DNA of 27,312 nt from Thermofilaceae archaeon (GTDB lineage: Archaea; Thermoproteota; Thermoprotei; Thermofilales; Thermofilaceae): assembly GCA_038727095.1 (NCBI GenBank), contig JAVYWK010000025.1:1-27312 (forward strand), in the 5' to 3' direction. Every line of letters starts with the position of its first letter. Within the stretch, counting starts at the first letter, position 1. The position numbers and the translations under genes were made by a program. Shown here piece after piece: positions 5,402-8,281 of the stretch. The notes beneath the pieces are model-generated. The model was not told the DNA's origin. It worked only from the letters and a program-made list of their open reading frames with translations, and made no database searches.

Positions 5402-5926
5402 ATGAGTGAGGGCGTAGAACCGATACACGCTTACGGATTCTTTTCGGTTAGCGAAAGCTTGGAAGTGAACCAGATCGTGGTCTACGAGTACATCGATTAC
5501 AGCCGGTATTACGCTGGCGTCGCTAGGGATATCGACCGTTTAAACGCGGAACTTGAAAGACTAGCGGCCAACATGCAACACTACTTAGATAGAGAGGAGG
5601 TGGTGATCAATGGTGATCGACTTCGCCCTAAAGTGGTTGGCGTCAACCTAGGTTTTCGAGGCGATCCTGAGGAGCCTTACTTGGTTTTCTTTATCCGTTT
5701 TCGCGGCCGACCGCGGAGGGGTTTGAACTATTATGAAAATATTTATGAAGAAAAAGTAGCAGAGTATCCCTATGAAGCTTATTGGTTCTTTCCACCTAAT
5801 GCTAAAGTAGAGGAGGTAGAATGCGCTGGTGTTTCCGAGGTAATTGGTGGTCAAATAGTGATAATGAAAGTGGAAGAAGGGGAGAAAATAACTGGGTATG
5901 AGAAAATAGTCTTCAGACTATTTTAA
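5402..5926 (+). CDS. Hypothetical protein
   Basis: 174-aa ATG ORF 15 bp after PDO, probably co-transcribed. No motif recognised. Confidence 0.8.
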   Translation: MSEGVEPIHAYGFFSVSESLEVNQIVVYEYIDYSRYYAGVARDIDRLNAELERLAANMQHYLDREEVVINGDRLRPKVVGVNLGFRGDPEEPYLVFFIRFRGRPRRGLNYYENIYEEKVAEYPYEAYWFFPPNAKVEEVECAGVSEVIGGQIVIMKVEEGEKITGYEKIVFRLF

Positions 5927-6087
5927 AAAGTTTACTTTAATGGTTACTATTTAGAAATTGCATTGTTATGTTATATCATATTATGATTAGTGTTAAGATC
6001 TTAAGATAATTGGCAAAAGTTAGGGTTAGAGTCAATTCGGATAGGTTCGGATAATATTTGGGAGAACAACTTGTTGAAAACACAGTC

Positions 6088-6094
6088 TTTATAA
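6088..6094 (+). promoter_or_regulatory. TATA box (TTTATAA) for the chlI/chlD-like gene
   Basis: About 27 bp upstream of GTG 6121 (leaderless spacing), embedded in the imperfect inverted repeat ACAGTCTT-TAT-AAGGCTGT (6082-6100). Confidence 0.65.
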
Positions 6095-6120
6095 GGCTGT
6101 AGTGTATTTCTACGCCTGTA

Positions 6121-7218
6121 GTGAGGATACTGCCGTTTCCAGCGTATGTGGGGCTAGATGATCTGAAAAGGGGGCTCCTAGCCCTCGCTGTTGATCCGAG
6201 CATAGGTGGTTTACTGATAATGGGTCCCAAGGGGACGGGAAAATCGAGTATAGTTAGAAGCTTCGCTAGGTTGCTGCCTTCAACAAGAGTTGTTTCGGAC
6301 TGTCCCTTTAGGTGCGAGCCCGATTCTCTGAGAGAGATGTGTGATATCTGCAAGTTGAGACTCGAGCGTGGAGAGGAGCTTCCAGTAGCGGAAACTCCGA
6401 TGCCAATCGTAGAGCTACCGATAGGGGCTACGGAGGACGTAGTTCTCGGGACGATAAACATCGAGCGAACGCTGAAAGAGGGAAGAATAGTGTTTGAGCC
6501 GGGTCTATTGGGAAGAGCAAATAGAGGTATCCTGTATATCGATGAAGTCAACCTCCTTCCCGATCACATTGTTGACTCTATCCTTGATGCTGCTGCCTCC
6601 GGTTGGCACACGGTAGCGCGAGAGGGGATTACGCTGCGCCACCCTGCTCGTTTTATCCTTATCGGAACGATGAACCCCGAGGAGGGTGAACTAAGGCCGC
6701 AGCTGCTCGATCGTTTCGCTATCGGTGTTCGAGCAGAGACGGTCAAAGATTCTAAACTGAGGGCCGAGATCATCAGGAGGAACATAGAGTTCGATAGCGA
6801 CCCAGCAGCGTTCGAAGAGAAATGGAGGCCGATCGAGGAGGAGATCAGGTTTCGAATTCTTAGGGCTCGAGAACTTTTACCTTATGTAAGCGTTGATGAC
6901 CTATACTACGAGCTCGTAGCTAAAGTTTGCACAAGGTTAGAGGTCGATGGTTACAGGCCGGACATCGTCACTGTGAAAGTTGCAAGGGCTCTCGCTGCCC
7001 TCGACGGCAGAACGCAGGTGAGCGAGGAGGATCTGCGCATAGGTCTGGAGCTTGCGTTAAGCCATAGGACGAGAGCTGAGGGATTAAAGCCTCCACCTGC
7101 GAAAGAGGAGATTTACGCAGCATTCAGCGAAGCATTGGGCAAGAAGCCCACGGTGCAAAGAGAGGACGGTCTCGAGAAGAAACCTCAAGTAAGGTTTTTT
7201 CCCCGATGGGCGTATTAG
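6121..7218 (+). CDS. ChlI/BchI-like (Mg/Co-chelatase small subunit type) AAA+ ATPase; N-terminal part of a probable frameshifted chlD-like gene
   Basis: PFPAYVG, Walker A GPKGTGKS, LPIGATED, PGLLGRANRGILYIDEVNLL (Walker B), and GTMNPEEGELRPQLLDRF. Confidence 0.92.
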   Translation: MRILPFPAYVGLDDLKRGLLALAVDPSIGGLLIMGPKGTGKSSIVRSFARLLPSTRVVSDCPFRCEPDSLREMCDICKLRLERGEELPVAETPMPIVELPIGATEDVVLGTINIERTLKEGRIVFEPGLLGRANRGILYIDEVNLLPDHIVDSILDAAASGWHTVAREGITLRHPARFILIGTMNPEEGELRPQLLDRFAIGVRAETVKDSKLRAEIIRRNIEFDSDPAAFEEKWRPIEEEIRFRILRARELLPYVSVDDLYYELVAKVCTRLEVDGYRPDIVTVKVARALAALDGRTQVSEEDLRIGLELALSHRTRAEGLKPPPAKEEIYAAFSEALGKKPTVQREDGLEKKPQVRFFPRWAY

Positions 7219-8281
7219 CCGAATAGTATCAGGTAAGAGCGATGTTCTGGCGTCCCTGCTCGCGCTGCTGTTATTCGTGGCGCTAGCGTTTGTGGATCTG
7301 AGGCTGGCCGCGTTAGCCATCCTTCTCTGGCTCCTCTTGAGCATGCTACTGAGGAGGGACTCGGTGTACTCGGGGAGGAGGGCGCTCATCAGGACAAGGA
7401 GGGCAATCTACGCTACGTTTTCGGGTGGGGCTGATCTCCGAAAAACGCTCCTTCAAGTTTCGCGTGGCATGAAGGTACTGGGAGTTCAGATCGAGCCCAG
7501 CCAGCTGATAGAACTGGCGATTAGAGTGTCCCGTAAAAGGGCCAGAATGCGTGGTAGGAGGAAGATGAGTGGCGCATCGATGGTGATAGACTACACGTTA
7601 CCCAAAGGACTCTACTATAAGCTTCACATTCCAGCCACGTTGAGGCGCAGCGCTGTACTGAAAGAGTTCCCACGCATCGGCTTAGATTCGCTCAGAGCGA
7701 AGCTGTTTGCGGGCAGAGCGAAAGTCTCGTTGGTGCTCGTACTTGATTCAAGCGCATCCATGATGTACTCGATCAGAGGAATTCTCACGGCTCTAAGGAC
7801 AATAGAGAGGGAGGCGCGCAGGTACAGGGATCGCGTTTCGGTCGTAGTGTGTAAGGGATTCGGTGCTGCAGTGCTTCAGCATCCTACAACGAATTTCAAT
7901 CTGGTGCAGAGCAAGCTATCACGAATCGGCCTCGACGATTTCACTCCGCTGGCCGCCGGAATGTACATGGGGCTTAACGTGGCTCTCGCGGAGAAGAGGA
8001 GAGGATACGAACCGGTCATCGTAATCGTTAGTGACGGGAACGCCAATGTCCCGCTTGAGAAACGGAGGGGAAGCGTGTGGAAGCCCGCGCTTGATCCGGC
8101 CGTTCAATCGGTCATGGATGTGGCATCGCAAATAGCGAGGAGCAGTATCGAGACCGTGGTTGTGAACACAAAGCATAGAGAGCCTTCGATGGAGGCTGAG
8201 GGCATGGTCATCAGCGGTACGGAACTCTTGATACAAGTAGCTCGCGTAACAAAGGGAAGTTATGTGGGCATTATAGGCTGA
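7193..8281 (+). CDS. TM hairpin + von Willebrand A (MIDAS) domain; ChlD-like C-terminal part
   Basis: IPATLRRSA pre-vWA motif, LVLDSSASM (DxSxS), TPLA and VSDGNANV. The frame is open from 7193, and the listed GTG 7277 cuts into a hydrophobic helix. Coordinates are the open frame, not a start codon. Confidence 0.82.
   Translation, partial: GFFPDGRISRIVSGKSDVLASLLALLLFVALAFVDLRLAALAILLWLLLSMLLRRDSVYSGRRALIRTRRAIYATFSGGADLRKTLLQVSRGMKVLGVQIEPSQLIELAIRVSRKRARMRGRRKMSGASMVIDYTLPKGLYYKLHIPATLRRSAVLKEFPRIGLDSLRAKLFAGRAKVSLVLVLDSSASMMYSIRGILTALRTIEREARRYRDRVSVVVCKGFGAAVLQHPTTNFNLVQSKLSRIGLDDFTPLAAGMYMGLNVALAEKRRGYEPVIVIVSDGNANVPLEKRRGSVWKPALDPAVQSVMDVASQIARSSIETVVVNTKHREPSMEAEGMVISGTELLIQVARVTKGSYVGIIG

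Follow-up and report, generated by a model that had tools for sequence, protein, structure and literature searches.

The 27,312-nucleotide (nt) stretch of DNA analysed here, hereafter the window, comes from a contig of a Thermofilaceae archaeon whose genome (1.86 Mb) is 92.4% complete. On its forward strand lie two reading frames that overlap briefly and stand one base out of register with each other: an upstream open reading frame (ORF) encoding an AAA+ ATPase, and a downstream frame encoding a putative membrane hairpin and a vWA domain. From the letters of the window alone, the original prediction had proposed that a +1 frameshift or transcriptional slippage in the overlap makes two proteins from this single locus, a 365-amino-acid (aa) ATPase and an AAA+-transmembrane-vWA fusion of about 719 aa. 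In this study we follow the two frames, and the seven-base sequence TTT TTT C that lies in their overlap, through related genomes and metagenomes, and weigh ribosomal frameshifting against the other explanations that the locus admits.

Results

Anatomy of the overlap

The AAA+ frame, here called the 0 frame, ends with the codons GTA AGG TTT TTT CCC CGA TGG GCG TAT TAG, within which TTTTTTCCCC occupies positions 7195-7204. The vWA frame is the +1 frame; it is closed by TAA at 7190-7192, open from 7193 and terminated by a stop codon at 8279-8281. The two frames overlap for 23 nt before the 0-frame stop codon, or for 26 nt when it is included, and because the +1-frame TAA and the 0-frame TAG bound the stretch in which both frames are open, a shift from one to the other must fall within it. 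One +1 step produces a protein of 719 aa with the junction peptide context ...KKPQVRFFPDGRISRIV.... In the open +1 frame from 7193 there is no ATG, GTG or TTG upstream of GTG 7277, and it is unlikely that this GTG is the true vWA start. The sequence, frames, overlap and coordinates set out in the original prediction proved correct to the base, as did its statement that the vWA frame has no start codon until the middle of the first hydrophobic helix. The features of the locus are collected in Table 1.

Table 1. Features of the AAA+/vWA locus in the window.
Feature	Position	Strand	Remarks
TTTATAA, TATA-box-like element	6088..6094	+	About 30 nt 5' of the GTG start, in the AT-rich spacer 5927-6120
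0-frame AAA+ ORF, 365 aa	6121..7218	+	GTG start; TAG at 7216-7218; product ends ...RFFPRWAY
Double-open stretch	7193..7215	+	Between the +1-frame TAA (7190-7192) and the 0-frame TAG (7216-7218)
Candidate shift site TTT TTT C (mRNA UUU UUU C)	7195..7201	+	Second UUU, 7198-7200; UUC, 7199-7201
+1-frame continuation	7199..8281	+	Would complete the 719-aa long product: linker, two-helix membrane hairpin, middle region, vWA domain
Predicted transmembrane hairpin	7244..7351	+	Helix 1, 7244-7294; helix 2, 7304-7351; DLR between them
First canonical start in the vWA frame, GTG	7277..7279	+	Within membrane helix 1; position not conserved among orthologues
MIDAS motif DSSAS (DxSxS) of the vWA domain	7745..7759	+	Read from the sequence; motif complete

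The two halves resemble the two small subunits of metal chelatases

Standard decoding of the upstream ORF gives the short product, an AAA+ ATPase of the ChlI/BchI type. It aligns to positions 2-318 of the NCBIfam model TIGR02442 (putative cobaltochelatase) with 450.1 bits and scores 397.5 bits against the BchI-ChlI model TIGR02030 (cut-off 466.95); its Pfam matches are AAA_lid_2, AAA_5 and Mg_chelatase, and its match to ChlI in the PDB (6l8d) has an E value of 1.6e-101. The downstream frame takes up where this ORF leaves off, aligning to positions 404-619 of TIGR02442 (91.4 bits), which is the C-terminal third of ChlD-like models. It scores 74.9 bits against the BchD-ChlD model TIGR02031 (cut-off 499.55), matches VWA_2 in Pfam, and its vWA part finds the BchD vWA domain in the PDB (2x31_A, E value 4.4e-9). 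Both scores for TIGR02442 also lie under the cut-off of that model, 779.45. The metal-ion-dependent adhesion site (MIDAS) is not only complete in the window: its D, S and S, together with the downstream T of TPL and the D of SDG, are invariant in all 23 sequences of an alignment of orthologues, from which one locus cut at its 3' end (L029) was omitted.

Between the two domains lies the predicted hairpin VLASLLALLLFVALAFV-DLR-LAALAILLWLLLSMLL, in which VLASLLALLLFVALAFV is the first hydrophobic helix. Hydropathy windows were used to score the hairpin, and in the same alignment it is conserved alike in orthologues whose halves are split and in orthologues whose halves are in frame. Five class-level paralogues have Pro/Gly-rich or polar linkers without such a hairpin. 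Joined, the two halves of the locus would have the layout of a ChlD-type protein, but with a membrane hairpin as the linker. The count of two helices suggests a topology in which the long form is tied to the membrane and carries both of its domains on one side.

A four-letter-code reading of the junction (TTTC=F, TTTT=F) was restricted to 6121-7417, and because such quartets recur in frame and also fire at those other places, the fold of the long product was modelled on a natural in-frame orthologue. The AlphaFold model has a mean predicted local distance difference test (pLDDT) score of 71.8, and its AAA+ and vWA parts are confident. The linker that holds the shift site scores below 50 and the hairpin appears as a helix at residues 379-421 with a pLDDT of about 60; in this model the shift site falls within a predicted disordered linker.

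Offset and motif are conserved across orthologous loci

We searched 61 related genomes and obtained a match in 34 of them, among which are 25 strong orthologous loci (L005-L029, the window's own included); one locus, cut by a contig end (L028), was excluded, leaving 24 for analysis. Relative to the AAA+ frame, the vWA frame stands at +1 in 20 of the 24 and in register in four; an offset of -1 occurs in none. In all 24, TTT TTT C stands at the domain boundary in register with the AAA+ frame. A T7 run, with an additional T upstream, occurs in one locus, and the run is T6 in the other 23. The seven positions of the motif are invariant, and the 48 positions flanking it agree in only 7-18 of the 24 loci. 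The stretch in which both frames are open varies from 14 to 158 nt among the orthologues, and the part common to all of them is the T6C motif. It is shortest, at 14 nt, in two loci (L026 and L027) that read TAA-CCTTTTTTCGC-TAG/TAA; as this overlap amounts to little besides the motif itself, the shift site is pinned to the motif.

The orthologues bear on several details of the original prediction. It had allowed that all orthologues might prove to be continuous single ORFs, or that they might share an independent vWA start and no slippery site; neither situation was found in the 24 loci, with the offset kept in 20 and the slippery sequence in all. It had also drawn the slippery sequence more widely, extending it through the CCC-C that follows the T run and pointing to the next 0-frame codon, CGA, as one that is often rare. 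CGA is indeed rare in this genome, at 5.0 per 1000 codons and 7% of Arg codons. The invariant signal is nevertheless TTT TTT C: CCC-C and the rare CGA are local to the genus and lie outside it, and we rejected them as the shift site, since they occur only in the closest relatives. An upstream element resembling a Shine-Dalgarno sequence was likewise rejected, as the codon before the site varies (AGG, CGG, AAG, AAA, TCC, ACC, ATA and others).

A scan of metagenome contigs gave 35 loci, 29 of which have both halves, and the in-register motif is present in 28 of these 29. In a script comparison with the genome loci, seven of the 28 matched one of them exactly around the site, and one other duplicates a further metagenome locus. 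By the script's offset, 24 are split and four are in frame; three are in frame after inspection of L081, which has a +1 change at T6C, an internal stop in its ATPase part and a second frame change, and which looks degraded. L084, the only locus without the motif, has its ATPase part in three pieces and two frames and looks degraded as well. L078 is a new in-frame example, with a +1-frame stop after three codons. Genome-collection records that bear the orthologue are labelled as Thermofilaceae, Thermofilales, Thermoproteales or Thermoprotei metagenome-assembled genomes; these records overlap the set of genome loci and were not recounted.

With the query used here, the gene was not detected in any of eight genomes from one genus of the same family (G010, G015 and G017-G022), several of which are 99% complete, nor in three genomes of another genus (G007, G013 and G016). 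On these results the gene is accessory rather than universal in the family.

In-frame orthologues suggest a reversed polarity of the signal

The four in-frame genome loci are single ORFs of about 720-740 aa and belong to three genera in three families, as judged from genome labels. All four retain TTT TTT C, and in each the +1 frame meets a stop soon after the motif, immediately in three (TTC TAA) and after three codons in the fourth. No stand-alone ChlI gene was found in the genomes of the in-frame orthologues; one of these genomes (G035) holds only a second fused paralogue of 657 aa. In these lineages the long form would be made by standard decoding, and a +1 slip would release a ChlI-like short form ending ...FF, so that the polarity of the signal would be the reverse of that in the window. 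That the motif has outlasted three or more reversals of polarity would be hard to explain if it had no role in recoding.

When the +1 reading of the window is aligned with one of the in-frame orthologues (L016), the two proteins form one block across the junction, with 63% identity over 441 columns; R358-F-F is placed on R361-F-F and the hairpin is aligned as well. Because in-frame orthologues align unbroken across the junction, the fusion is expected to be a functional long protein. In all, 44 homologues of this longer type were identified at E<=1e-10.

More distant in-frame ChlD-like proteins (P0008-P0046, 704-835 aa) have a basic residue, a variable residue and then Phe-Phe or Leu-Phe followed by Trp or Lys at the same boundary, for example VFFWPKK and GFFKNA. 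Phe-Phe is therefore ancient as a feature of the protein, and the shift site may have been built upon it. Separately, one in-frame ChlD-like class-level paralogue without the hairpin (L032) reads GAT TTT TTT AGT at the boundary, at about codon 347, with TAG in the -1 frame directly past its T7 run. This single locus is possibly a reverse-polarity slip site of another type.

Separate genes and an internal terminator are improbable readings

The simplest alternative to recoding is that the locus consists of two separate genes, with translation of the vWA part starting independently, whether from GTG 7277, from some non-canonical codon or through re-initiation past the TAG, and with T6C kept for the sake of Phe-Phe. 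Gene callers would split the locus in this way, other organisms do have chlI and chlD as neighbouring genes (PMC9227772), and in distant in-frame relatives the protein itself conserves Phe-Phe at this boundary. The start codons do not favour it. Among the 24 loci, no conserved canonical start was found in the +1 frame ahead of the first membrane helix; the first canonical start of the vWA frame in split loci mostly lies within or past this conserved helix, at varying places, and the 14-nt overlap of L026 and L027 has no start close by. The +1 offset in 20 of 20 split genome loci and the four natural fusions that align straight across the junction are equally difficult to reconcile with independent genes.

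Codon choice points the same way. TTT accounts for 19% of Phe codons in this genome and TTC for 81%, and among the 408 Phe-Phe pairs in its long open frames only 11 are TTT-TTT. The whole 1.86-Mb genome contains 120 TTTTTTC sites on both strands, and the present one alone has at least 150 in-register open codons upstream. GC-rich orthologues show the same bias, the remainder of the gene having one TTT against 18 TTC (L007), none against 16 (L019) and one against 17 (L008). Set against local usage, the log10 probabilities of TTT-TTT add up to -22.9, a figure that is overstated as the loci are related. With TTT-TTT kept against so strong a preference for TTC, we consider two separate genes to be a decidedly improbable reading of the locus.

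The same T run may be read as a signal to RNA polymerase. Archaeal RNA polymerase terminates at oligo-T runs, and this one could serve mainly as an internal transcription stop or attenuator that keeps expression of the vWA part below that of the ATPase part, possibly beside recoding. The rarity of such runs in coding sequence, as counted above for TTT-TTT pairs and for deep in-register TTTTTTC, is in keeping with this idea. However, an ATPase message that ended at the run would lose its stop codon, which lies 3-36 nt beyond it, and the idea leaves the constant +1 offset, the conserved C and the translation of a startless vWA frame unexplained. Furthermore, a 212-nt contig from an RNA library passes through the site, from 7152 to 7362. 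An attenuator as the main function is thus even less probable than separate genes.

The locus is intact in independent assemblies

A one-base change of frame at a homopolymer has the typical look of an error, and the degraded appearance of L081 and L084 suggests that some metagenome copies are damaged; the locus might on these grounds be a pseudogene or the result of a homopolymer sequencing mistake. Contigs from three DNA runs, belonging to three studies, span 7189-7218 without any insertion or deletion, a check that was made on contigs, in which rare variants would not show. The same offset and motif recur in 20 genomes of several families and, by the script's offset, in 24 metagenome loci, and both halves are well conserved, with an invariant MIDAS. 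A broken gene is the least credible of the explanations considered, and we give it almost no weight.

In the 212-nt RNA-library contig, which derives from a related strain with eight mismatches to the window, the T6 run is unchanged. A second RNA-library contig (128 nt, depth 13.8) runs through 7104-7186 and then continues with the letters of about 6128-6157, near the start of the ORF. The span that it loops back over is 1059 nt, a multiple of three, so that the join is in frame. Circularization of the RNA, a tandem duplication carried by a related strain or a chimeric contig could each explain it. A bulge-helix-bulge at this back-join was considered and rejected, as co-folding of the two ends gave no pairing between them.

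Signs of selection on the short product

In the window's family the tail after Phe-Phe is P-R/G-W-S/T/A-F/Y, and it is preserved through synonymous codons: Arg is CGA, AGG or CGG, Ser is TCG or AGT, and Pro is CCC, CCT or CCG. These synonymous changes suggest that selection also acts on the terminated 0-frame product. Support for the tail is taken from them and not from frame-identity figures, because conservation over the 15 nt of the tail (0.75 in the 0 frame versus 0.57 in the +1 frame) is biased by the choice of loci according to their 0-frame tail.

A model for the generation of two products

We propose that standard decoding of the message would halt at TAG 7216 and give a soluble ChlI-type AAA+ ATPase of 365 aa, and that in a fraction of passes the ribosome would move forward by one base on UUU UUU C. 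The single tRNA-Phe would sit on the second UUU by G:U wobble and then re-pair with the overlapping UUC, to which it is a full Watson-Crick match. Reading would go on in the +1 frame to give the 719-aa protein, in which the same ATPase is followed by the two-helix membrane hairpin and the ChlD-type vWA domain with its MIDAS. The short and long products probably co-assemble, because both have an identical AAA+ module and by analogy with ChlI/ChlD, and would form a ring in which some of the subunits are tethered to the membrane and bear vWA domains. The genome has one tRNA-Phe gene, with the anticodon GAA, and the base after T6 is C in 24 of 24 loci, which is precisely what re-pairing on UUC requires.

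Several observations weigh against this model. The codon that follows the shift site in the window, CCC, is the commonest Pro codon (19.5 per 1000) and the rare CGA comes one codon later; across the 24 loci that codon is CGN in nine, CCN in nine, CTA in three, CAT in two and CTT in one. As CGN is present in only nine of them, the hungry-codon part of the model known from viruses is not general here. Conserved downstream RNA structure was not found in the 60 nt beyond the site in the 24 loci (mean z -0.15, with z below -2 in two). The same gene has at least one other in-frame TTT-C, at codon 6, from which it follows that UUU-C alone is insufficient and that the first UUU must matter. Since Phe-Phe is conserved as a protein motif at the boundary in distant in-frame relatives, part of the conservation of the motif may reflect the protein, a consideration that leaves the use of TTT over TTC unexplained. 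The RNA-library evidence for T6 is a contig, from which a minority of slipped transcripts would drop out. A shift of -2 on U6 would also lead into the vWA frame and is not separable from a +1 shift here. The case as a whole is one of sequence comparison.

A structure upstream of the site was also considered, in which U6 pairs with the purine-rich GAAGAAACCU (7172-7201). This hairpin has 10 base pairs and a z of -3.76 in the window, and it is found in 18 of 24 minimum-energy folds. It was rejected because shuffled upstream sequences pair nearly as often (mean z -0.85) and the pairing mostly reflects Lys/Glu/Arg codon composition.

The strongest competitor to a ribosomal shift is transcriptional slippage, in which RNA polymerase drops one U, or adds two, on the T6 run and the same two products result. 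Homopolymer runs are classic sites of slippage, and the conserved element here is a homopolymer without conserved RNA structure behind it. Slippage would give exactly the proteins expected from a ribosomal +1 shift, and the in-frame loci with a near +1-frame stop would work by this route too. Reaching the +1 frame, however, takes either one base lost or two gained, and the tendency of oligo-T runs to terminate archaeal transcription makes productive slippage less obvious. The C found in every locus is unneeded for Phe-Phe in the in-frame loci and is a better fit to re-pairing of tRNA-Phe. The ungapped T6 in one RNA-library contig also speaks against slippage, as weak evidence given the related strain and its eight mismatches. 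Published sites in frameshifted chlD (fs-chlD) genes are A-runs whose efficiency tracks their length (PMC3711429, in the text available to us), a point in favour of slippage, but these A7-A11 runs vary in length, whereas the run here is short and is fixed at T6 in 23 of 24 loci.

A ribosomal shift is favoured because the length of the run is fixed, its register is fixed and the C is invariant, and within recoding we rate it about three times as probable as a transcriptional shift; slippage itself we hold to be unlikely, though less so than any of the other alternatives. Taken as a whole, the comparative evidence makes it highly probable that programmed recoding yields two products from 6121-8281, and so upholds the two-product frameshift of the original prediction, which had likewise left ribosomal and transcriptional routes as alternatives. 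The complete statement, comprising recoding, two products and the ribosomal +1 mechanism, we put forward with more reserve, as the account that is probably right.

Promoter, neighbouring genes and the missing large subunit

The TATA-box-like element ahead of the gene suggests that it has a promoter of its own and a leaderless or near-leaderless mRNA. The CobN/ChlH large subunit (PF02514) gave no match in the 92.4%-complete genome, in a search that matched five of 14 control genomes. The neighbouring genes encode a thioredoxin-fold protein, a DUF92 membrane protein and a pyridine-nucleotide disulphide oxidoreductase, and none is a tetrapyrrole gene. As no CobN/ChlH was found and the neighbours are not those of a tetrapyrrole pathway, the locus is taken to encode a chelatase-type motor without a chelatase partner.

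Just upstream, at 5402-5926 on the forward strand, is an ORF of 174 aa that belongs to no Pfam family. It adjoins the gene in eight of 16 named orthologous loci, distant ones included, and its look-alikes in the Atlas (scores 0.96-0.97) are hypothetical Thermoproteota proteins. From its position, this ORF could be a partner of the motor.

Discussion

Programmed frameshifting is barely documented in archaea, and at the locus described here the signal is simple, seven bases long and conserved throughout an order. We can extend our model into a broader claim: that UUU UUU C is a genuine archaeal ribosomal +1 signal, used order-wide and in both polarities, with at least three lineages reversed, and that it determines in what ratio the subunits of a partnerless chelatase-type motor are free or tethered to the membrane. 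On this broader claim we find the evidence evenly balanced. If true, it would make this gene the first cellular one in archaea with a conserved programmed +1 frameshift, and would mean that a chelatase-type AAA+/vWA motor without a chelatase partner serves some membrane process.

The locus has practical value as well. Its natural in-frame and out-of-frame versions are built-in controls for studying +1 shifting on archaeal ribosomes, and the annotation of such archaeal genomes should merge the two ORFs. More generally, the idea that two subunits are obtained from one gene would be extended to a membrane-anchored form and to organisms without a chelatase large subunit, and the absence of that subunit points to another job for motors of the ChlI/ChlD type.

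Three groups of known systems invite comparison before the closest one. The first is that of the chelatase subunits themselves, ChlI/ChlD (BchI/BchD) and CobS/CobT. The canonical D subunit has a soluble linker between its AAA+ and vWA parts. The locus shares with these systems a ChlI-type AAA+ ATPase and a complete-MIDAS vWA domain that is closest to that of BchD (2x31_A). It differs in that no CobN/ChlH was found and the scores are under the NCBIfam cut-offs, in that the ATPase module of the long form is fully conserved and identical to that of the short form, and in that a membrane hairpin stands in place of the soluble linker.

The second comparison concerns the shift site. UUU followed by C is the +1 site of influenza A PA-X and of plant amalgaviruses, where it takes the form UUU_CGN (PMC5052127, in the text available to us). 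As described there, a P-site tRNA-Phe moves from UUU to UUC, one tRNA-Phe reads both codons, the C is needed and no elaborate structure is involved, and in these respects the present site is alike: a 0-frame UUU followed by C is found at 7198-7201. The viral cases are eukaryotic and have a rare CGN codon in the A site, whereas the present gene is archaeal, its A-site codon in the window is CCC, and a CGN codon takes that place in only nine of 24 loci. A second UUU, moreover, always precedes the site here.

Thirdly, within archaea, the fucA1 gene of Saccharolobus solfataricus is decoded by a -1 frameshift on A-AAA-AAT (PMC8211752), and a 2021 review of archaeal recoding lists, in the text available, one proven -1 case and mentions +1 shifting only for a haloarchaeal virus (PMC8211752). 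As far as that source describes it, fucA1 is, like the present locus, a cellular gene from a thermophile of the same phylum, with a programmed frameshift in a short overlap. In contrast, the shift in fucA1 serves to make one enzyme and occurs in a few strains only, and the present site is conserved across an order and would yield two products.

The closest relatives are the fs-chlD genes, the 'magnesium chelatase' recoding cluster. According to the text available to us, the first report described 23 such genes, from four genera of bacteria and two of methanogens, which shift by -1 on A-runs with efficiencies of 10-63% in E. coli reporters (Antonov et al. 2013, PMC3711429; also PMC5009743); the sites tested were A_AAA_AAR with 7-11 A's, from Pseudomonas, Burkholderia, Delftia, Herpetosiphon, Methanocaldococcus and Methanococcus (PMC3711429). 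Genes of this kind occur in all major phyla, archaea included, with -1 shifts more frequent than +1 (Kuznetsov et al. 2022, PMC9227772). The +1 cases are attributed to Antonov 2020 (Mol Biol Evol 37:2268), and some carriers, termed 'stage 1', are without the large subunit and tetrapyrrole pathways (PMC9227772). The word 'transmembrane' does not occur in PMC9227772. In the literature searched, a scope that did not extend to the +1 list and supplements of Antonov 2020, we found neither a UUU UUU C shift in chlD-type genes nor a membrane hairpin in a ChlD linker.

Four features of fs-chlD genes are present at the locus: a ChlI-type AAA+ ORF upstream, a startless vWA frame offset by one base, a slippery sequence that orthologues conserve within the overlap, and in-frame fusions. 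As in fs-chlD, normal decoding would yield a ChlI-like protein, and a frameshift at the domain boundary a ChlD-like AAA+-vWA protein; there are fused homologues in frame, and annotation divides the locus into two genes. There are also differences. The published sites that were tested shift by -1 on A-runs and the present one would shift by +1 on UUU UUU C; the linker is a two-helix membrane hairpin; and in some orthologues the order would be reversed, the long product being read in frame and the short one arising from a shift. On the comparisons made here, the locus is best filed as an fs-chlD device that differs in its putative +1 U6C signal, in the predicted membrane anchor of its long form, in the absence of a large subunit and in the presence of two polarities within one order.

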